Origin: Alphaproteobacteria bacterium
Lineage (GTDB): Bacteria; Pseudomonadota; Alphaproteobacteria; UBA828
Direction: 5' to 3'
Assembly (NCBI GenBank): GCA_963422645.2
Contig: CAXXVO010000004.1
Coordinates: forward strand, 224,001 to 288,000
Length of the DNA: 64,000 nt
Position numbers and translations under genes: made by a program. The notes below the pieces were generated by a model. It saw only the letters and a list, made by a program, of their open reading frames with translations, did not search any database and was not told where the DNA came from. How positions within the stretch are numbered: position 1 is the stretch's first letter; each line of letters begins with the position of its first letter. Positions 1-62,498 of the stretch are shown one piece after another.

Positions 1-1001
1 CGGTGTCCATCTCCACTGCCACGATCGCCGCCATGGGCCGGCGCACAGCGCAGCGCTTCGAGGGCTTCCTCGACCATGTCGCCGATCTGATCCGCACGCA
101 GGCGCCGGTCAAGCACCTCGACGAGACCGGCCTGCGTATCGCCGCCCGTACCCGCTGGCTCCATGTGCTGTGCACCCCGTTGCTCACCGTCCTGCGCATC
201 GGCGAGGGACGCGGCGATGTCGAAAAGAACCTGAAAGGCATCCTCGTCCACGACGACTTCGCCCCCTACTTCACCATCAAGGGCGTCCGCCACGGCGCCT
301 GCAACGCACATCACCTGCGCGAACTCCAGGCCCTGATCGACATCGAGAAGGAGGAATGGGCGGCGAGCATGCACCGCCTGCTTCAGCGCGCGCGCAGGGC
401 CGCCCGCTTCGCCCGTGAGAAAGACCGTCAAGTCCCCGCCTCCCTGGTGGCCCGCATCTCAAGGGCATGGGACCGTATCCTCGAAGAAGCCATCGCCTTC
501 CATGAGGCCCAACCGCCGCTCCAGATCGCAAAGCGAGGGCGAAAGAAACGCCGCATCGGCCACAACCTCGCGCGCCGCCTTCAAAAGCATAAGGAGGGCT
601 GCCTGCGCTTCCTCACCGACCTGCGCACGCCGTTCACGAATAACGAGGCGGAGCGTGACATCCGTATGAACAAAGTGCATGAGAAGATCTCAGGCGGCTT
701 CCGCTCCCTGCAAGGCGCCTGCAACTTCGCCGGAATGCGCAGCGTCATCGTCACCGCTCGAAAGCAAGGCTGGAACATCCTGCAAATCCTGGCGCACCCG
801 GAACCGATGCAGCTGATCCCTATACTGCGCTCCTGAACTTCTCCGGCTCATCCTGAGTATCGCTGTCCTCTCATCTTGTTCGCGACGCGGCGTTCATCAT
901 CCTCTCGCGCTCAAGAGAGTAGGCACCCCCGCGGCGTGGGGGCGTTGACGCAAAAGGAACTGGCTTGTTCCATAAGAGAGAGGGGGTACCTGGGCAGTTA
1001 C
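1..1001 (+). mobile_element. IS66-family element, 3' part (runs off window start)
   Basis: Near-identical to the complete copy at 39927-42437; ends in GGGGTACCTGGGCAGTTAC (reverse complement begins GTAAC, typical IS66 terminus). Confidence 0.92.
3..836 (+). CDS. IS66 transposase, C-terminal part
   Basis: HLDETG, ACNAHHLRELQ and TNNEAERDIR motifs. Confidence 0.92.
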   Translation: MSISTATIAAMGRRTAQRFEGFLDHVADLIRTQAPVKHLDETGLRIAARTRWLHVLCTPLLTVLRIGEGRGDVEKNLKGILVHDDFAPYFTIKGVRHGACNAHHLRELQALIDIEKEEWAASMHRLLQRARRAARFAREKDRQVPASLVARISRAWDRILEEAIAFHEAQPPLQIAKRGRKKRRIGHNLARRLQKHKEGCLRFLTDLRTPFTNNEAERDIRMNKVHEKISGGFRSLQGACNFAGMRSVIVTARKQGWNILQILAHPEPMQLIPILRS

Positions 1002-1091
1002 CAAGAGAGTAGGCACCCCCGCGGCGTGGGGGCGTTGACGCAAAAGGAACTGGCTTGTTCCATAAGAGAGAGGGGGTACCTGGGCAGTTAC
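912..1091 (+). repeat. Exact 90-bp tandem duplication of the IS66 right end
   Basis: 912-1001 equals 1002-1091 (CAAGAGAGTAGG...GGGCAGTTAC). Confidence 0.95.
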
Positions 1092-1207: not shown

Positions 1208-2404
1208 TCAAGTGTCAAGTTTCATGCTTTGCAAAACTTCAAAGCATGCAGCCAATGGGTGATAGTCCGTCTTGGACGCCGGGCTCTTTTCGTTGCTGTT
1301 TTTTTGGCCGTCACTATTCAAAATGCGGTACCAGGCGCCGTACTCGTGATCCACAAAGTGCTTGTCGGCATAGCCCCAAACACGGTCGTACCAGTCCCAG
1401 TACTTGTCGAGACCGGTTGCGTTGGCCAGAAGGGCCGACGCCGCAAATGATTCGGAAAAGACCCAATAATACTGGTCGGTGTCGAGGATCGTACCGTCGG
1501 GCGCAAATGTGTAGTTGATTGCCCCGGTTTCCGACGCATACGCTCGCTCCATCGCAGCGTCAAAGAGCATCTTGGCTTGCGGGACCAGCCAGTCGGACGG
1601 GCGGTGCCGGTTGAGAATCAAGAGCAGCTTCGACCACTCGGTAAAATGGCCGGGAAGATAGCCGTAGGGCCGGAAGAGATTCTTCGGATCGTCCTTGTTG
1701 TAGTTCCAGTCGTGCGTCCAGTCGGTCTTGTAGTGTTCCCAAACGAGACCGTCGGCCTGCGCCGCCAAATCCTGGCAAATGCGCCGCGCCAACAACGCCG
1801 CGCGGTCGAGATAGCGTGACTCTCCGCTTGCCTCCCACGCCGACAGCATCGCTTCGCACATGTGCATGTTGGCGTTCTGGCCGCGGTAGGCATCGACCTT
1901 CGTCCAGTCCCCCGCCGCGATCTCGTCCACGTAAAGCGATGCGTCCGGGTCCCAGAAGCGCGCCTCCAGCAGGTTCCAGATGTCATCCATCAGGGCGGCC
2001 GCACCCTCGGCGCCCGCCTTACAGGCTCCGGCGGCGGAGAGGAGCACGAATGCATGTCCGTAGCAATGATATGTGCCATCCACGACCTCCTGCCCGGAAA
2101 GCACCCAGGCATAGCCGCCGTCTTCGCGTTTGTGATGCTCGCGTAGGAACCGGACTCCGTGAGCGGCCGCCGCACGATACTCGTCGGCGCCCAGGACCAG
2201 ATGTGCAAGCCCGTAATTGTACGTGAAGCGGCAGGTCCCGACGAGGTGCTTCGTCATCCGGTCGAAAACGGTTCCGTCGTCAAGCATCTGATTGATGAAG
2301 CCGCCATATTCGTCATCGATGCACCGGGGGTGATAGAAGCCGATGATGTCGGCAATATGCCGCTTGAGAAAGGCAGGGTCTCGGAAATCCGATCGGTCAG
2401 ACAT
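1208..2404 (-). CDS. AGE-family sugar epimerase/isomerase (YihS-like)
   Basis: YRGQNANMHMCEA, PGHFTEWSKLL and KTDYH motifs; start placed at MSDRSDF just after the SDR stop. Confidence 0.9.
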   Translation of the reverse strand: MSDRSDFRDPAFLKRHIADIIGFYHPRCIDDEYGGFINQMLDDGTVFDRMTKHLVGTCRFTYNYGLAHLVLGADEYRAAAAHGVRFLREHHKREDGGYAWVLSGQEVVDGTYHCYGHAFVLLSAAGACKAGAEGAAALMDDIWNLLEARFWDPDASLYVDEIAAGDWTKVDAYRGQNANMHMCEAMLSAWEASGESRYLDRAALLARRICQDLAAQADGLVWEHYKTDWTHDWNYNKDDPKNLFRPYGYLPGHFTEWSKLLLILNRHRPSDWLVPQAKMLFDAAMERAYASETGAINYTFAPDGTILDTDQYYWVFSESFAASALLANATGLDKYWDWYDRVWGYADKHFVDHEYGAWYRILNSDGQKNSNEKSPASKTDYHPLAACFEVLQSMKLDT

Positions 2405-2409
2405 TCCAT

Positions 2410-3219
2410 CTACTCCGGAAGAATAACCCCGAGCTTCGACAGGAGGCCGCCATCGACCTTGATGTCTGCGCCCGTCATGAATGGACAGAGGTCGCTGGCA
2501 AGGAACGCCGCAACCGCAGCCACCTCCTCGATGGACCCGACGCGACCGACGGGATGTCCCTTGCCCCAGTCGGCGATTGTGGCTTCGACCGTGTTTTCGC
2601 CCTTCCAGAGGTCCGCCGCCCAACGCAACATAGGCGTATCGATCGCCGCCGGGCAGATCGCGTTTACGCGAATTCCGGCATCGGCGTGATCGAGAGCCAT
2701 GGCGCGGGTCAAGGCAAGAATTGCGCCCTTCGACGCTGTATAGGCCGCAACATTCGACTGAGACGCGAATGCCTGTACCGAGGCGAGGTTGATTACGGAT
2801 CCGCCGCCGGCCTCCTCGATGTGCGGGATGGCGTAGCGGGACGCCCAGTAGAGTCCCTTGAGATTTACCGCCATCACTTCGTCCCACGTCTCTTCTGGGG
2901 TGTCGGTGATGGTGCCGTAGCGCTGTATTCCGGCGCAATTCACCAGAACATTCAGGCCGCCGAACTGGCCAACCGTCTGCGCAACGGCGTCTTTGACATT
3001 GTCGCCGCGCGAAACGTCGGCCTCGATGGCCAACAGATCGTTGCCGGCGTCGAGCGCGGCCTGCGCTTGCCCAAGCGACTCCGGCTCGTTCGAACATATC
3101 GCAACCCTCGCGTTGCAAGCGAGGAACGCCCGAGCGATCCCGAAGCCCATACCCTTCGATCCGCCGGTTACGAAGGCGCTCTTTCCGGAAAGATCAATTT
3201 GCGCAGGACTTGCCATCAC
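2410..3219 (-). CDS. SDR-family oxidoreductase
   Basis: TGGSKGMG, NCAG, YTASK. Confidence 0.92.
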   Translation of the reverse strand: MMASPAQIDLSGKSAFVTGGSKGMGFGIARAFLACNARVAICSNEPESLGQAQAALDAGNDLLAIEADVSRGDNVKDAVAQTVGQFGGLNVLVNCAGIQRYGTITDTPEETWDEVMAVNLKGLYWASRYAIPHIEEAGGGSVINLASVQAFASQSNVAAYTASKGAILALTRAMALDHADAGIRVNAICPAAIDTPMLRWAADLWKGENTVEATIADWGKGHPVGRVGSIEEVAAVAAFLASDLCPFMTGADIKVDGGLLSKLGVILPE

Positions 3220-3911
3220 ACCGCCTCGTTTTCCGCTTCAGCCGAGCCCTCGAAATACTCCGGATAAGTGGCCATCAGTTCATCGATCTGTCCCATCACA
3301 CGCCGAAGGTGCTGCTCCATCACAGTGCGGGCGCGGGCCGTGTCATGGCTTTCAATCGCCTTGAAAAGCTCGTCATGATCCTTGAGCAACAGGTTCAGGT
3401 CGATCTTTTCGAGGCTGAGCAAGCGCACCCGGTCCATGTGTTTTTTCGCGTCCGAGATCACCGACCAGACAAGTGATCGACCCGCCATCTCGGCAAAGGA
3501 TTGGTGCATTCTCTCGTCGGAAGCAAAGAACATTGCGATATCGGCTTGTTCGATCGCGAAACGCTGTTCTTCGATGGCCTGCCGCACTTTGAACCTGAAG
3601 CGCTTGGTGTTTCTTGCCGCGGCCTCTTCAATAATGGATACCTCCAACTTCTCGCGCACGAACTGCGCGGAACGCACCGCGTCGATGCGGATCGGCGCGA
3701 CGATCGTTCCCGCGCGCGACCGAAAATCCACCAAGCCCTCGGCTTCCAGGCGGGACAGGGCCTCGCGAACCGGTGTTCGGCTGACACCCATAGACGCGGC
3801 GAGATGGGATTCCGCGATCGCTTCATTCGGAGCGAACTCCATCGATACGATCTTCTTTCTGATCGTTCGGTAAGCTCGCTCTCCCGCCAAGAGAGCCTTG
3901 ACCTGCTGCAA
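3216..3911 (-). CDS. GntR/FadR-family regulator
   Basis: wHTH (GVSRTPVREAL) plus FCD-like C-terminus; TTG start after GAGGA is approximate. Confidence 0.88.
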   Translation of the reverse strand: MQQVKALLAGERAYRTIRKKIVSMEFAPNEAIAESHLAASMGVSRTPVREALSRLEAEGLVDFRSRAGTIVAPIRIDAVRSAQFVREKLEVSIIEEAAARNTKRFRFKVRQAIEEQRFAIEQADIAMFFASDERMHQSFAEMAGRSLVWSVISDAKKHMDRVRLLSLEKIDLNLLLKDHDELFKAIESHDTARARTVMEQHLRRVMGQIDELMATYPEYFEGSAEAENEAV

Positions 3912-3932
3912 GCGCAATTCCTCACTGTATTC

Positions 3933-3942
3933 TTGTATACAC
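3933..3942. promoter_or_regulatory. Possible GntR/FadR operator
   Basis: AT-rich palindrome TGTATACA directly upstream of the GntR gene. Confidence 0.4.
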
Positions 3943-4223
3943 GCATGCAGTCCAAATCGCGTCAAGCTCCACGTTTCATATGACGAGCGCTGCATCATCG
4001 AACGGTTGGCGCGGGAGCGCAAAGTGTTGGCGGCGGCGTCATGAGGTGGCTTTGCTCACTCGGACCTCCTGGCGGCAGAGTCGGAGCGTGACCTTGTCGT
4101 TCTACGATCGCGGTCGAGTGGCTCGGTCATTCGGCTTTCGCCCTCGCGGGTCCGAACGTGCGGCTCTCCCGCACCCGGCCGCTCCCAAGGGTGACCCGCC
4201 TCATGCCCGACGCAGCGGTCAAG

Positions 4224-5270
4224 TCACTCCAATCCACCTGTCCGACCTCTGGGCTCCACGTCGGAACCGGTGGCGACGGCGACCGGGCGGTTCTCCTCGA
4301 GCGATGCAAAGAGCGCGTCGAGCACCCGCACCGCGGCAAGCGCTTCGCGATAGTCCTGAACGAAGGGCGCGGAGGTCTGGACGGCCTCGGCGAAATGCAT
4401 GAGTTCGTCACGCAGATCGCCCGTTATCCGGCCGTTTATCTCTGGCCAGAGGTGCGTGTCGGCGGCTGTCGAGCCTTCCGCCGTGATGACCTGGAAACCC
4501 TGGTCGCGCACGTCCAGCAGGGCAGCGCTCTTCGTGCCAATCACCTCGAACGCGGCGTGGTAGCCCGCCGGCAGGCCCTCCGGCCATGCCCAGCTGTAGT
4601 CGAGGGTCCCGATGGCGCCGTTGGCGAAATTGACGACCGCGTAAAGCGCGTCCTCGTTGCCGTTCGACAGCTTGCTGACCTTCTGGGCGTATACCCGAAT
4701 GATGGGAGACCGGGAGACCCACTGCATCGCGTCGATGTCGTGGACACCCAGCTGGCACAGAATTGACGAATCGGCGCCGATTCTCTCGGCCAATGTGCGG
4801 ATCGTGTTGCGCTTGGCACGAAGATGGATCGGCTCGCCCAGGCGGTCGGGATGCGCTGCGGCCTGGAGCTGGACGTAGCGCGGGTCGAAGCGAAGCACGT
4901 GGGCGACCATCAGCCGGACCCCCGTCTCCTCGACCGCACGGGCGATCGCCTCGGCCCCCTTGGCATCGTGCGCCATGGGCTTTTCCAGCAGGATGTGCTT
5001 GCCGGCACGGGCGGCTGCGGTCGCCGACTCCACGTGGAGCCGGTCGGGGGTCGCGATGCTGACCGCGTCAATGTCGTCCCGTTCCAGAAGGGAAGCCGGA
5101 TCGCGGTGATAGTCCGCCCCCAGATCGTCCGCCAGTCCCCTGCAGGCCTCAGCGTCCGGATCCGCGACCGCGACGAGCCGCGTGTTCGGAAGCTGGCTCC
5201 ACACCCTGGCGTGGAGGCTTCCCATGAAGCCGACCCCAATCACACCCAGGCGCAGCCCTTCACTCGTCAT
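4224..5270 (-). CDS. Gfo/Idh/MocA oxidoreductase
   Basis: GVIGVGFMG and EKP motifs. Confidence 0.92.
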   Translation of the reverse strand: MTSEGLRLGVIGVGFMGSLHARVWSQLPNTRLVAVADPDAEACRGLADDLGADYHRDPASLLERDDIDAVSIATPDRLHVESATAAARAGKHILLEKPMAHDAKGAEAIARAVEETGVRLMVAHVLRFDPRYVQLQAAAHPDRLGEPIHLRAKRNTIRTLAERIGADSSILCQLGVHDIDAMQWVSRSPIIRVYAQKVSKLSNGNEDALYAVVNFANGAIGTLDYSWAWPEGLPAGYHAAFEVIGTKSAALLDVRDQGFQVITAEGSTAADTHLWPEINGRITGDLRDELMHFAEAVQTSAPFVQDYREALAAVRVLDALFASLEENRPVAVATGSDVEPRGRTGGLE

Positions 5271-5540
5271 GGGGATCGCTCCTTCTCGCGTTCGGGATGG
5301 GGAAGGGCCTGCCCTGCCTCATCGAACAGCAGAGCATAAAAGGGATCGGCTGCTGCATTGCCCGATGCATAGGGTCAAATTCCCGATTGCACAAAGCTGC
5401 CGTTCTCCCGCCTGACCGGCTTGCCACGTGGGTCGGTCGCGGCCGCAACAACCCGACCTGCACCGACGAGGCGCTTGCGCTCTACGTCGGCGACAGCATC
5501 CTGAAGAATATCGGCAACCTTTTTGACTAATGGACGCGAC

Positions 5541-38835: not shown

Positions 38836-39417
38836 ATGCTGCGGTCGGCGTATTCCATGGCGGTAGAGCATGTCGGTGAGCGGGTTGATCGCAGTAACTC
38901 TGACCATCCGGCTGCCGCCGACGTACTGGATCAGAATGTGAAGGCGGCTCTTCGAGCATCTACAGCAGCGGTGCGCAACCAGGGAGCGAATGCGGCTCCC
39001 CAGCCATTGTTTACTAATCACAAGCAGCACCTTGGCGCGGCGCGAATCATAGGCCTTCCTCCGGCGCCGACGCGTTCCGCACCAGCCGCAAGCTTCCACG
39101 CACTACAGGAGTGGGAAGGATACGTGCTCAGTGCTGACACAACCAGTTTCGTTGCGCGCCTAGTGGATGTGACTACCAGAGCATCCCACGAAGAAGAGGA
39201 AGCGGTCATCCCGCGGGCCGAACTGTCTGAGAGCGACAACGCCAAAATGCGTGTCGGGAGTATCTTCCGCTGGGTGATCGGCTACGAGCGGGCGCGGGGG
39301 GGAACAAAAAGGCGCGTGTCCCAATTTGTGTTTCGCGATCTTCCCGCGATCACTTCAAGCGATCTCCGGGAGGGCGAAGCCTGGGCACGAAAGATGGCGC
39401 GATCGCTTAATCCGTGA
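38836..39417 (+). CDS. Hypothetical protein, cassette gene 2
   Basis: 193-aa ORF 3 bp after gene 1, overlapping the gene 3 start (GTGA). Confidence 0.75.
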   Translation: MLRSAYSMAVEHVGERVDRSNSDHPAAADVLDQNVKAALRASTAAVRNQGANAAPQPLFTNHKQHLGAARIIGLPPAPTRSAPAASFHALQEWEGYVLSADTTSFVARLVDVTTRASHEEEEAVIPRAELSESDNAKMRVGSIFRWVIGYERARGGTKRRVSQFVFRDLPAITSSDLREGEAWARKMARSLNP

Positions 39418-40091
39418 CCGCAGAGACGACGCCTCCGGGAGCAGGTGAGTTCGAACTCACACTCTTCGGCCCCGGATATGGAGAGGGAATCGTTCTGCAT
39501 GTCGGCGACGGCGTATGGGTCATCGTCGATTCGTGCATCGATGCTGATGGCTCACCGAGAGCTCTTTCTTACCTAGAGAGCATCGGCGTCGATCCCACCC
39601 AGGCTGTCGCTCTAGTCGTCGCGACGCATTGGCACGATGACCACATTCGTGGGATGGAGCGACTGGTCGAGACCTGCGGCCAAGCCATATTCTGCTGCGC
39701 CTCAGCGTTATGCCAAACGGAATTTCTCTCGGCCGTCGATGCCCTTGAACGCCGCCATCTCTCCGTCACTGGTTCGGGCGCACGGGAGCTTTACAAAGTG
39801 TTCACGCTGCTTGTGGAGAGGAAGTCGACACCAACGCACGCAATATCTAATCGGCGAGTCTTCGCAAATGGGGCATGCGAAATTTGGTCGCTTTCGCCTG
39901 ACAATGTGGCCTTTCAAGGTTTCCTGGTAACTGCCCAGGTACCCCCTCTCTCTTATGGAACAAGCCAGTTCCTTTTGCGTCAACGCCCCCACGCCGCGGG
40001 GGTGCCTACTCTCTTGAGCGCGAGAGGATGATGAACGCCGCGTCGCGAACAAGATGAGAGGACAGCGATACTCAGGATGAGCCGGAGAAGT

Positions 40092-41633
40092 TCAGGAGCG
40101 CAGTATAGGGATCAGCTGCATCGGTTCCGGGTGCGCCAGGATTTGCAGGATGTTCCAGCCTTGCTTTCGAGCGGTGACGATGACGCTGCGCATTCCGGCG
40201 AAGTTGCAGGCGCCTTGCAGGGAGCGGAAGCCGCCTGAGATCTTCTCATGCACTTTGTTCATACGGATGTCACGCTCCGCCTCGTTATTCGTGAACGGCG
40301 TGCGCAGGTCGGTGAGGAAGCGCAGGCAGCCCTCCTTATGCTTTTGAAGGCGGCGCGCGAGGTTGTGGCCGATGCGGCGTTTCTTTCGCCCTCGCTTTGC
40401 GATCTGGAGCGGCGGTTGGGCCTCATGGAAGGCGATGGCTTCTTCGAGGATACGGTCCCATGCCCTTGAGATGCGGGCCACCAGGGAGGCGGGGACTTGA
40501 CGGTCTTTCTCACGGGCGAAGCGGGCGGCCCTGCGCGCGCGCTGAAGCAGGCGGTGCATGCTCGCCGCCCATTCCTCCTTCTCGATGTCGATCAGGGCCT
40601 GGAGTTCGCGCAGGTGATGTGCGTTGCAGGCGCCGTGGCGGACGCCCTTGATGGTGAAGTAGGGGGCGAAGTCGTCGTGGACGAGGATGCCTTTCAGGTT
40701 CTTTTCGACACCGCGCGCGCTCACCTCGCCGATGCGCAGGACGGTGAGCAACGGGGTGCACAGCACATGGAGCCAGCGGGTACGGGCGGCGATACGCAGG
40801 CCGGTCTCGTCGAGGTGCTTGACCGGCGCCTGCGTGCGGATCAGATCGGCGACATGGTCGAGGAAGCCCTCGAAGCGCTGCGCTGTGCGCCGGCCCATGG
40901 CGGCGATCGTGGCAGTGGAGATGGACACCGCGAAGATGTCGCTCATGAGTTCGGCCAGACGCTTCTCGGGCACGAACTGGGCGTACAGCAGGTAACTCAC
41001 CCAAGCGGTGATGCGAGGGCCGTACTGGACCGGGGCGGTGACGCCCGGCGGGAAGGCGGCTCGTGTCAGCGTGCCGCATGCGCCGCAGAGGCAGCGATGG
41101 GCGCGGTGTTCGGTGACCTCGAGAGGCTGCGGCTCGGGTACGTCGAAGACCTGCCGACAGGCGGGCGCGCCTTGCCGGTCGGCGTCCGAGAGCTCGACGC
41201 CACAGCCGGAACAGGTGGAGGGGTGGTGATCGACGACACGGTCCGGGCTGTCGCTCCGCGCGAGGGTGGTTCCCTTGTGGCCGGGCTGGCCGCCACTGGG
41301 CCCGCCGGACTTTCCGCGCTGGCTTTGGGTGCGCCTCTGGGCTCCGCTTTTCTTCTTGAGCCCGTCGCTGGCGGGGGGCTTGCTGCTTGTGGTGCTGTTG
41401 AGGGCCGCGCTGCGCTCGAGTTCGGCGATGCGCTCGCGCAGGGCCGCGTTCTCCTGCTCGAGTGCGGCATTTTCCCGGGCGAGCGCGGTGGCTGATCGCA
41501 GCAGCCCCTGCCCCCATTCCCGGACGGCAACGACGACAGTGGTTGCGAGGGATGATGGCTCGAGAAGCTCCTTCAGGCAGCAGAAGGCCTCGTTACGGGC
41601 GGCGAGGTCTTCGTGCCAGTGCGACACCGTCAC
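40092..41633 (-). CDS. IS66 transposase (single-ORF, ISBst12-like)
   Basis: Coiled coil, NSTTSSKPPASD, GGQPGHKG, zinc finger, DETG, TNNEAER; GTG start overlaps the MTase stop. Confidence 0.92.
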   Translation of the reverse strand: MTVSHWHEDLAARNEAFCCLKELLEPSSLATTVVVAVREWGQGLLRSATALARENAALEQENAALRERIAELERSAALNSTTSSKPPASDGLKKKSGAQRRTQSQRGKSGGPSGGQPGHKGTTLARSDSPDRVVDHHPSTCSGCGVELSDADRQGAPACRQVFDVPEPQPLEVTEHRAHRCLCGACGTLTRAAFPPGVTAPVQYGPRITAWVSYLLYAQFVPEKRLAELMSDIFAVSISTATIAAMGRRTAQRFEGFLDHVADLIRTQAPVKHLDETGLRIAARTRWLHVLCTPLLTVLRIGEVSARGVEKNLKGILVHDDFAPYFTIKGVRHGACNAHHLRELQALIDIEKEEWAASMHRLLQRARRAARFAREKDRQVPASLVARISRAWDRILEEAIAFHEAQPPLQIAKRGRKKRRIGHNLARRLQKHKEGCLRFLTDLRTPFTNNEAERDIRMNKVHEKISGGFRSLQGACNFAGMRSVIVTARKQGWNILQILAHPEPMQLIPILRS

Positions 41634-42295
41634 GTGTCTTCGGCCTCGACGGCCATCATGGCGGCGAGCACGGCGAGGCGTTCGCCCGGCGGCAAGGCCT
41701 GGTAGCGCCGGCCCCAGTTGGCTGCCTTGCGCTTGATGCGCTGGCGGTCGGTGAAGTTCCGGCCTGCGTGGCTGGCCCAATGCATCCGGTCGGGGGCGTA
41801 GTTGAACCAGACGACCTCGGTTCGCACCAGACCCTGGGTCGTGACCTGCAGCGCCAGCCGGCGCCATCCCGCCAGCACCTCGTCATAGAGCGCCGACGGA
41901 TGGCCCGAGATCATGACCTGGCAGGGCAGAGCCTTGAGCAGCGCGAGAAGCGCGACGTGGCCGGCCTCCTCGTACTCGAAGCGGTAGCGCTGCGCCGAGC
42001 GGCGGGTCGCGTGCAGATAGGGCGGATCGCTGTAAACCAGCTCCGGGCCCAGGAACGGGAACGAGGCCAGGAAGTCATGGGCACAGCCGTGAACCAGATC
42101 GACCGGGTAGTCGCAGACGAAGGCCTCGAGCGCCTGCGCATCGCGGTCGATGCCGATCGAACGCACGGCCGGCGGCTTGCGCTTCATCAGCGCCCCGCCC
42201 CCAAGGTGGCTTTCGATGTAGACGGAGTGCGGCGGCATCAGCGCAATCAGCGCTTGGCACAGACCTGCTGTCGCCTTCGAGCCGAAATACCCCAT
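41630..42295 (-). CDS. Compact Dam/D12-like DNA adenine methyltransferase
   Basis: YFGSK, YIESHLGGG, YSDPPY, MISG, TEVVWFNY. Confidence 0.88.
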   Translation of the reverse strand: MGYFGSKATAGLCQALIALMPPHSVYIESHLGGGALMKRKPPAVRSIGIDRDAQALEAFVCDYPVDLVHGCAHDFLASFPFLGPELVYSDPPYLHATRRSAQRYRFEYEEAGHVALLALLKALPCQVMISGHPSALYDEVLAGWRRLALQVTTQGLVRTEVVWFNYAPDRMHWASHAGRNFTDRQRIKRKAANWGRRYQALPPGERLAVLAAMMAVEAEDT

Positions 42296-43016
42296 GGACC
42301 GCTCCCGTCACGCGAGAGAGCAGTCCATAGTCCCGCAACTCTATGAGGTCAAGAACCAATCGCGGTGGCAGAACCAGACCGCGGCCGCCGCCATAATCAC
42401 CGTCCTAAACTCAGGATTGGGGTACCTGGGTAGTTACGTTTCCTGAGGGCGATCGGAGACTTGGTGCCCAACGAAGGAGAGACCAAGAGGCGTATCCCCG
42501 ATCTTTCCCCTAACGATATTGCGGTCGCACTTTGGATCGAGGTCGACGATGTTGCGGCCCTACTTGGCTCGGATCTGGAAGGGCGCGGCTGGGTACAAAT
42601 ACTGGGGAGTGCGGCACGCCCGACCGGCAAAGCCTCGGCGTTCAAGATTCCGCATCATGGTTCGGAGAATGCCGACGAGCCGCAGGTGTGGCAGCGAATG
42701 CTGGATACCGATCCCTTCGCGGTGCTCACACCTTGGCGAAGAGGTGGACACACCTTACCGAGTGAGCCGGGCGTAAAGCGCATCCTGTCGAATACCACGA
42801 ACGCTTACGCAAGCTCAGCGCGCACATCCGTCGTGGCGTCCTCTAAGCGTCGAGGCCGTGCGGTTGATCGGACTATCCGGGAGTCGGGTGTCAAACTCCG
42901 ACGGCTCGATTTGTCTCCCGGCGCGGTTCGCCTGCGGAAGGTGATTCACGCTGAGGATCCCTGGCAAGTCGAGTTGTTTGGAGCGGCTTGTCATCTTGAG
43001 GACTTCGCTTAAGTGA

Positions 43017-62082: not shown

Positions 62083-62498
62083 GTAACTGCCCAGGTACCC
62101 CCTCTCTCTTATGGAACAAGCCAGTTCCTTTTGCGTCAACGCCCCCACGCCGCGGGGGTGCCTACTCTCTTGAGCGCGAGAGGATGATGAACGCCGCGTC
62201 GCGAACAAGATGAGAGGACAGCGATACTCAGGATGAGCCGGAGAAGTTCAGGAGCGCAGTATAGGGATCAGCTGCATCGGTTCCGGGTGCGCCAGGATTT
62301 GCAGGATGTTCCAGCCTTGCTTTCGAGCGGTGACGATGACGCTGCGCATTCCGGCGAAGTTGCAGGCGCCTTGCAGGGAGCGGAAGCCGCCTGAGATCTT
62401 CTCATGCACTTTGTTCATACGGATGTCACGCTCCGCCTCGTTATTCGTGAACGGCGTGCGCAGGTCGGTGAGGAAGCGCAGGCAGCCCTCCTTATGCT
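62083..62498 (-). mobile_element. IS66 right end, interrupted by copy 4 of the unclassified IS
   Basis: Matches 39927 onward. Confidence 0.93.

Follow-up and report, generated by a model that had tools for sequence, protein, structure and literature searches.

A compact Dam-type methylase gene joined to the transposase of an IS66-family insertion sequence belongs to a cassette found in several insertion sequence families

The usual picture of insertion sequences (ISs) is of elements that encode a transposase alone and rely for their regulation on host factors such as Dam, and an IS with an adenine methylase gene of its own raises the question of what that gene does for the element. The case considered here lies in a 64,000-nucleotide stretch of an alphaproteobacterial genome (contig CAXXVO010000004.1, positions 224,001 to 288,000; hereafter the window), where an intact IS66-family IS of 2,511 bp, with its genes on the minus strand, occupies positions 39927-42437. 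An earlier note, written from the DNA letters, had described an active-looking IS66 with terminal inverted repeats (TIRs) and a target-site duplication (TSD), in which a 221-amino acid DPPY methylase takes the place of tnpA and tnpB, and had proposed that the element might control itself through this enzyme. The open reading frames (ORFs), the TIRs, the TSD and our Pfam and NCBIfam searches bear out the description. Our analysis of the element, its genomic copies and its relatives suggests that it may set its own transposition rate or protect the DNA that carries it.

The element is bounded by 19-nt TIRs that start GTAA: the transposase-distal right inverted repeat (IRR) at 39927..39945 on the plus strand and the methylase-proximal left inverted repeat (IRL) at 42419..42437 on the minus strand, complementary at 18 of 19 positions (95%). 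The TIR pattern has five matches in the window, against zero expected from shuffled sequence. Identical 8-bp target-site duplications flank the element at 39919..39926 and 42438..42445. Between the ends, and both on the minus strand, are the methylase ORF (41630..42295, 221 amino acids, with a Dam-type core) and the ORF of an IS66 DDE transposase (40092..41633, 513 amino acids). The TGA stop of the methylase overlaps the presumed GTG start of the transposase by four nucleotides (GTGA, 41630..41633, minus strand), as the earlier note had it, and the same overlap recurs in all 36 full-length copies of the genome and in eight of eight diverged relatives. This conservation supports GTG at 41633 as what is probably the sole plausible start of the transposase.

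The assignment of the transposase to the IS66 family is clear. It matches Pfam DDE_Tnp_IS66 (PF03050) at 1.9e-40 (139.5 bits, cut-off 23.1) and the NCBIfam IS66 transposase model (NF033517) at 3.2e-85 (286.5 bits, cut-off 180), with a DUF6444 match at its N-terminus (5.2e-10); zf-IS66 (PF13005) scores 23.9 bits, under its cut-off of 27.3. Elements of this family have TIRs beginning GTAA and an 8-bp target duplication; the canonical group carries tnpA and tnpB upstream of tnpC, and in the ISBst12-type subgroup the transposase is the only gene. Neither the ORF list nor the Pfam search gave a tnpA or tnpB in the element, where the methylase is the sole upstream gene within the ends, and the element is not a canonical three-gene IS66 member. 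Its transposase groups with those of single-gene elements, a subgroup that we take to be the ISBst12 group of ISfinder; the element is nonetheless not a single-gene one, as a conserved methylase lies within the ends of 36 of 36 copies. The nearest annotated transposases (46-48% identity) come from single-gene IS66 elements, on Bradyrhizobium and Fischerella plasmids, whose ends share a 14-nt TIR core with the element to within one or two bases. In these relatives the end and the start of the transposase are only about 66 bp apart, with no methylase and no inverted repeat of the kind described below, whereas the element has a promoter-methylase cassette of about 0.8 kb in that position.

The claim that the IS looks active is supported by its copies in the window's genome (5.9 Mb in 23 contigs). 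At 90% identity or above, BLAST finds 106 pieces of the element, amounting to 147,090 bp or 2.5% of the genome; 36 are full-length copies at 99.6-100% identity, and 22 of these, the window copy included, have a perfect 8-bp TSD. The methylase ORF is intact at 221 amino acids in every full-length copy, and the transposase ORF has 512 or 513 amino acids in 34 of them and 346 and 189 amino acids in the other two. Counting all pieces, the whole methylase gene is covered by 52 of the 106 and the whole transposase gene by 41. A protein search of the genome gave 72 methylase matches, 70 of them without an internal stop; about 51 are near-identical, and about 21, at 86-88% identity, derive from a second related element. 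The element was found in five of the 41 genomes searched, its own included, and in three of 20 other genomes of the genus; assemblies with 16 to 72 copies are among the carriers. This patchy distribution, together with the multiple copies, points to recent acquisition and expansion and indicates that the element is a recently expanded, active-looking IS66-family insertion sequence. Against eight diverged relatives, the methylase has ratios of nonsynonymous to synonymous substitution rates (dN/dS) of 0.12-0.30 and the transposase of 0.24-0.41, the methylase being lower in eight of eight comparisons; these ratios indicate that both genes are under purifying selection.

The remaining 14 of the 36 full-length copies have no target duplication. 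Some pairs share one flank, as do C16:4615-2108 and C8:14916-17425, for example, on the left, and copies without a TSD but with shared flanks are the pattern expected after recombination between copies. The second methylase-carrying IS66 lineage of the same genome is 82% identical to the element in DNA and 86-88% in its methylase, with TAG in two of the matches; examples are G000:C3:188097-190078, C8:733609-734268 and C10:127908-128567.

Whether the 221-amino acid protein is likely to be a working enzyme is less apparent from standard family models. Motif I lies at residues 28-35 and DPPY at 90-93, with about 55 residues between them, and with an E cut-off of 0.01 the protein has no match in Pfam, not even to the Dam/D12-class model PF02086; that model is precomputed for only six of 120 listed homologs. 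The Dam NCBIfam model TIGR00571 gives 22.1 bits against a cut-off of 114.85, and the single sequence finds no match among PDB sequences. These poor scores are what would favor the view that the gene is an inactive hitch-hiker and does nothing for the element. We consider that extremely improbable, given the purifying selection on the gene, thousands of intact relatives, invariant catalytic and cofactor motifs and a confidently predicted methylase fold. At E <=0.001, 3,706 homologous proteins are found among 90% clusters, the best 120 of them at 67-100% identity and a few named DNA adenine methylase by their sources; at 50% clustering there are 5,660 representatives, 563 of them at E <=1e-30. 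In a 50-member alignment G5, H23, G32, D90, P91, P92 and H113 are invariant and Y93 is nearly so.

A family profile built from that alignment reaches the D12-class, alpha-group enzymes, matching DpnM at 4.8e-10 and E. coli Dam at 5.6e-6. The N-terminal loop, motif I and DPPY of the methylase agree in order and sequence with those of Dam, DpnM and T4 Dam, and the AlphaFold2 model of the protein (mean predicted local distance difference test score, pLDDT, 92) has the same catalytic-domain fold, with E. coli Dam, DpnM and T4 Dam as the top Foldseek matches (template modelling score, TM, 0.51-0.58). The profile covers DpnM residues 16-77 and 184-266 and skips the intervening insert; therefore the recognition insert of about 100 residues that these three enzymes possess is absent here. 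The earlier note had remarked that the spacing of the motifs leaves little room for a target-recognition domain, and the canonical insert site is indeed empty in the alignment to DpnM. Past the Dam core, the model shows a beta-hairpin and two long helices (residues 181-219), part of a C-terminal extension of about 55 residues beyond the core of Dam, DpnM and T4 Dam, and these structures bear the near-invariant basic residues R184 and R189. We infer that this conserved basic helical hairpin at the C-terminus may be a DNA-recognition element that replaces the missing Dam insert. The predicted homodimer scores 0.25, against a mark of 0.42, a result that weighs neither for binding nor against it. 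Taken together, the conserved motifs and the modelled fold suggest that the protein is probably an active N6-adenine DNA methylase.

To see how far the methylase keeps company with a transposase, we examined 160 related loci, 80 from species-representative genomes and 80 from metagenomes. The gene directly downstream of the methylase encodes an IS66-family transposase in 135 of them, of the type of the window element in 63 and of a second type in 72. A DDE_5 transposase follows in seven loci and an adjacent IS630-type transposase in one; no transposase was found by the adjacency test in ten, and in seven the contig is too short to tell. Within the metagenome set, 54 of 67 downstream ORFs of at least 150 amino acids match DDE_Tnp_IS66. 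The second IS66 type measures about 2.25 kb and has TIRs in common with the window element only in the first eight bases; a perfect 8-bp duplication was seen in six of 28 elements checked, many of the contigs being short repeat contigs. Its methylases are about 70% identical to those of the window type, compared with 26-31% for the transposases. This disparity, and the absence of a methylase from the nearest transposase relatives, shows that two distinct IS66 lineages carry the same cassette.

The association extends beyond IS66. The DDE_5 elements are 2.78 kb long, have a 16-nt TIR of their own and carry, upstream of the transposase, a methylase 82-85% identical to that of the window element; identical 5-bp direct repeats flank four of the five copies examined. 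A 3.2-kb element with a DUF4277-type transposase holds an IS66 left end together with the methylase. In a quick maximum-likelihood (ML) tree, the IS-borne methylases stand apart from three plasmid homologs (Shimodaira-Hasegawa-like approximate likelihood ratio test, SH-aLRT, 97), and those linked to DDE_5 are nested in the clade linked to the window's IS66 type (SH-aLRT 99). The element and its close relatives occur in metagenome-assembled genomes (MAGs) labelled as different phyla. The position of the gene invites a structural explanation, in which the methylase would be a transpososome accessory that replaces TnpA/TnpB and binds the transposase directly: it sits in the place of the accessory genes and is translationally coupled to the transposase, the first 68 or so residues of which have no counterpart in plasmid-borne relatives, where matches begin at residue 69 or later among the 25 records listed of 259. 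The same methylase, however, serves non-homologous transposases and also exists without any, and its catalytic motifs are strongly constrained, so that we regard this explanation as quite unlikely.

Two loci of one Thalassobaculaceae MAG (L086 and L089) have in common an 828-bp block of methylase and promoter at 94% identity; one copy lies beside the IS630-type transposase and the other has no transposase found downstream. Since this block alone is common to both, the cassette also occurs by itself. On a metagenome contig to which both L100 and L114 belong (1792-5310), the methylase stands behind an IS66-type left end, seen in L100, and is followed by a 147-amino acid ORF that belongs to no family; 1.6 kb further along, an IS91-type (Y2) transposase takes the place of the IS66 transposase.

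What travels with the methylase can be read from the region between the left end and its start codon, which is 142 bp long in the window element and which we aligned for 81 distinct elements drawn from the two IS66 types. Its conserved layout comprises a near-invariant -35 hexamer, a 17-nt spacer and a -10-like hexamer, together with inverted 5-nt half-sites around ten variable bases. In the window copy, this corresponds to a putative sigma-70 promoter of the methylase-transposase operon at 42324..42352 on the minus strand (-35 at 42352-42347, a 17-nt spacer, -10-like hexamer at 42329-42324) and to a 5-N10-5 inverted repeat, CATAG-N10-CTATG, at 42326..42345 on the same strand, whose half-sites (42345-42341 and 42330-42326) span the spacer and overlap the -10 region. 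Of 105 distinct upstream 120-mers, 89 contain the ATAG-N10-CTAT core, where shuffled sequence would give 0.12, and three of the 16 exceptions (L176, L182 and L186) alter both half-sites in a compensatory way. The whole genome contains only 83 occurrences of the repeat for its 72 methylase matches.

The repeat is also found upstream of the DDE_5-linked and solo methylases and in five of nine plasmid homologs; two IncP-typed plasmids have a clade-specific symmetric half-site, CATCG, and a third symmetric variant is seen in one of two phage homologs. The two methylase-less IS66 relatives with the common TIR core both lack the repeat in their upstream regions. This distribution indicates that the inverted repeat follows the methylase and not the transposase. 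The methylase is the only protein common to all the contexts in which the repeat occurs; we infer, therefore, that it is the methylase that recognizes the repeat, perhaps as a repressor, perhaps as a methylation target whose modification would alter promoter strength. Considered with the loci above, these results indicate that promoter, 5-N10-5 repeat and 221-amino acid gene form a portable module. In the element itself, the cassette is fixed and under selection, with predicted co-transcription with the transposase and coupling to it through the 4-nt overlap. The repeat gives the idea of self-control, proposed in the earlier note, a better grounding, because it is conserved in the methylase-transposase promoter and follows the methylase; that the element controls itself by its own methylase is thus plausible.

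A different target had been suggested there: GGTACC, which is present in both TIRs of the window copy. If the methylase modified this site, it could control transposase binding or shield the element ends, and GGTACC is indeed found also in the methylase-proximal end of the close relatives, wherever that end was found. The transposase-distal end of these same-lineage relatives, however, differs after the 14-nt core and is without GGTACC, and the TIRs of the sister lineage, whose methylases are about 70% identical, have no GGTACC at all. The DDE_5 elements, despite methylases 82-85% identical, have unrelated ends. GGTACC was thus rejected as a conserved target, and the suggestion is not supported; we consider it very unlikely that this site is what the methylase acts on to govern the TIRs.

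The best single explanation of the whole, to which we would give an even chance, is that a self-regulating methylase cassette sets the expression of the transposase. The enzyme would act on the inverted repeat in its own promoter, either by binding or by methylating it, and this feedback would hold the level of methylase constant. The transposase relies on this promoter as well, and on the methylase gene being translated, and the cassette would therefore limit transposase output as copies accumulate: output per copy would fall with copy number and may rise briefly after replication. The scheme amounts to a control like that of IS10, with the methylase carried by the element, and shielding the DNA that carries the element from restriction during transfer would be a likely second benefit. 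Transposition of IS10/Tn10, IS50/Tn5 and IS903 is under host Dam control at GATC sites. The likeness that we propose is adenine methylation tied to a transposase promoter, with low expression when the DNA is fully methylated and a burst after replication as the common outcome; those elements use host Dam and GATC, whereas here the methylase is encoded by the element and the candidate site is the CATAG-type inverted repeat. A more ambitious form of the proposal, which we advance only tentatively and think more doubtful, would make the cassette a portable, self-contained epigenetic governor: the enzyme would methylate and shut its own promoter, several unrelated IS families would have captured it upstream of their transposases, and control that is independent of the host, senses copy number and is coupled to replication would let an IS multiply to dozens of copies, as with the 72 methylase genes here, and yet leave its host alive.

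The nearest relatives outside ISs suggest another use. Among plasmid records, 196 contain a methylase homolog; 134 are typed conjugative, and in 138 the match covers at least 80% of the methylase. In the 40 records listed of the 196, identity is 45-56% over 93% of the query, and over plasmid and phage homologs the match spans 89-93% of the length. One of them, upf31.0, lies at the end of the trb operon of the IncP-typed plasmid pB3, a Xanthomonas plasmid homolog is near transfer genes, a Sphingobium plasmid homolog is in a region with SprT-like and zincin-like proteins, and some homologs adjoin transfer or ArdC-like genes. Phage records with a match number 78, of which 21 match over at least 80% of the protein, and in two P2-like phages the homolog has the same place, after a replication gene. 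These solitary methylases are of the same family and size and share the promoter layout, but are not joined to a transposase; they were seen annotated only as putative methylases, and no functional study of them was found in the parts of the literature that were covered. In two unrelated plasmids, pPUV-6 of P. aeruginosa and one of Synechocystis (L198 and L199), the homolog is followed by an overlapping hypothetical gene of about 277 amino acids with a 7-cyano-7-deazaguanine synthase gene close by, a hint that it may be connected to a deazaguanine DNA-modification cluster.

As the nearest non-IS relatives are solitary plasmid and phage methylases, a role as anti-restriction cargo has to be taken seriously and is the main rival. 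The enzyme would then modify all DNA of the cell, including plasmids and phages that bear the IS, so that this DNA escapes restriction in the next host; the repeat would regulate the methylase only, and the transposase would just use a convenient promoter. The conjugative and phage settings of the homologs favor this reading, as does the spread of the element and its close relatives over MAGs labelled as different phyla, and an enzyme without the recognition insert might be relaxed in its specificity and hence protect broadly. Pure cargo leaves unexplained, however, the constant upstream and co-oriented placement of the gene, the conserved stop/start overlap and the uptake of the gene in the same position by at least three transposase families, and 72 gene copies per genome are far beyond the needs of protection. 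As the sole explanation we therefore find it possible but rather unlikely. Self-regulation and cargo are not mutually exclusive.

Several observations weigh against self-regulation of transposition by the cassette. A consensus promoter scan calls zero promoters in the window copy, because the -10 is weak in this lineage, and the putative promoter is argued there from its conservation. The strict repeat is absent from 16 of the 105 upstream regions, and a perfect repeat is lacking in four of the nine plasmid homologs and one of the two phage homologs. The half-sites are 15 bp apart from centre to centre, which is unusual for a simple dimeric operator, and the methylase tree comes from a quick ML search. 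The plasmid and phage relatives show that the cassette is useful without a transposase, and any effect that it has on transposition may therefore be a side effect. With two canonical Dam-family enzymes encoded in its own genome, the host does not need the element for this activity. For no member of the family did we find results on methylation, DNA binding, expression or transposition.

Beyond what the earlier note had proposed, the analysis adds three points: a C-terminal extension that could recognize DNA, the presence of the cassette in other IS families, and the plasmid and phage methylases as nearest relatives outside ISs. The lineage is large, occurs in MAGs from several phyla and brings along a methylase whose conserved promoter appears to be self-regulated; IS families unrelated to it have acquired this cassette too. 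If the cassette does control transposase output, it would represent a new, element-encoded form of copy-number control, which could explain massive IS expansions such as the one that fills 2.5% of the genome here. If it is anti-restriction cargo instead, then insertion sequences, like plasmids and phages, would carry solitary methylases and help to shape host methylomes. Under either reading, this is a compact adenine methylase family without the classical recognition domain, the specificity of which is directly testable.

The closest parallel in the literature concerns eukaryotic retrotransposons that encode prokaryote-type adenine methylases (bioRxiv 10.64898/2026.05.21.726589). According to the portion of that preprint covered here, a Dam-type methylase has likewise been passed repeatedly between element classes, but these are eukaryotic retroelements with a different proposed logic, that of active chromatin marked by N6-methyladenine (6mA), and a term search over that portion returned no mention of insertion sequences or transposases. 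The portion covered of a thaumarchaeal mobile-element paper (PMC6563490) describes no IS-borne methylases, and the corresponding portion of another (PMC9296519) reports IS66 counts and, unconnected with them, solitary methylases. The full-text literature, a scope outside which lie ISfinder, TnPedia, REBASE, most subscription journals and supplements, yielded no description of methylase-carrying IS66 elements or of the cassette, and a catalogued member elsewhere is possible.

In the window, the insertion interrupts a host gene on the plus strand. The 5' part (39414..39926) matches Pfam Lactamase_B at 7.4e-07, a metallo-beta-lactamase fold, and stops at a codon boundary after 171 codons. The 3' part (42446..43012) continues in the same frame as the ORF at 42461-43012, the bases 42446-42460 being stop-free, and has no Pfam match on its own. 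The near-identical IS ends reported earlier at 1-1091 and from 62083 are real, although they are truncated, transposase-distal fragments of the same IS without the methylase. The first consists of two such ends on the minus strand (1..1091): window 1-1001 corresponds to element positions 1-1001 of a 1,254-bp fragment that extends beyond the window, and 1002-1091 to element positions 1-90. The other, at 62083..62498 on the plus strand, corresponds to element positions 1-416.

Just inside the transposase-distal end of the element, at 39957-39972, a plus-strand terminator-like hairpin with a T run is oriented to block transcription entering from outside; the scan of the element found one terminator-like site against 1.3 expected, and the hairpin may be due to chance.

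Several copies elsewhere in the genome are split at element positions 433-438, and at least ten solo fragments end exactly at 438. A serine-recombinase element that targets IS66 transposase genes was considered as the cause and set aside: the single insert examined, a 2.5-kb element between the IS halves at G000:C18:4988-7499 (L204), encodes a Transposase_29-type transposase (PF21804) in two overlapping ORFs. Finally, several copies have, at a distance of 180-300 bp, an IS66-type transposase gene without a methylase, the DNA of which is 66-67% identical to element positions 223-1510, for example at G000:C16:127293-128578 beside C16:124526-127033 and at C9:246931-248216 beside C9:244240-246747; the repeated adjacency suggests a repeated nest or a composite moved as a unit.

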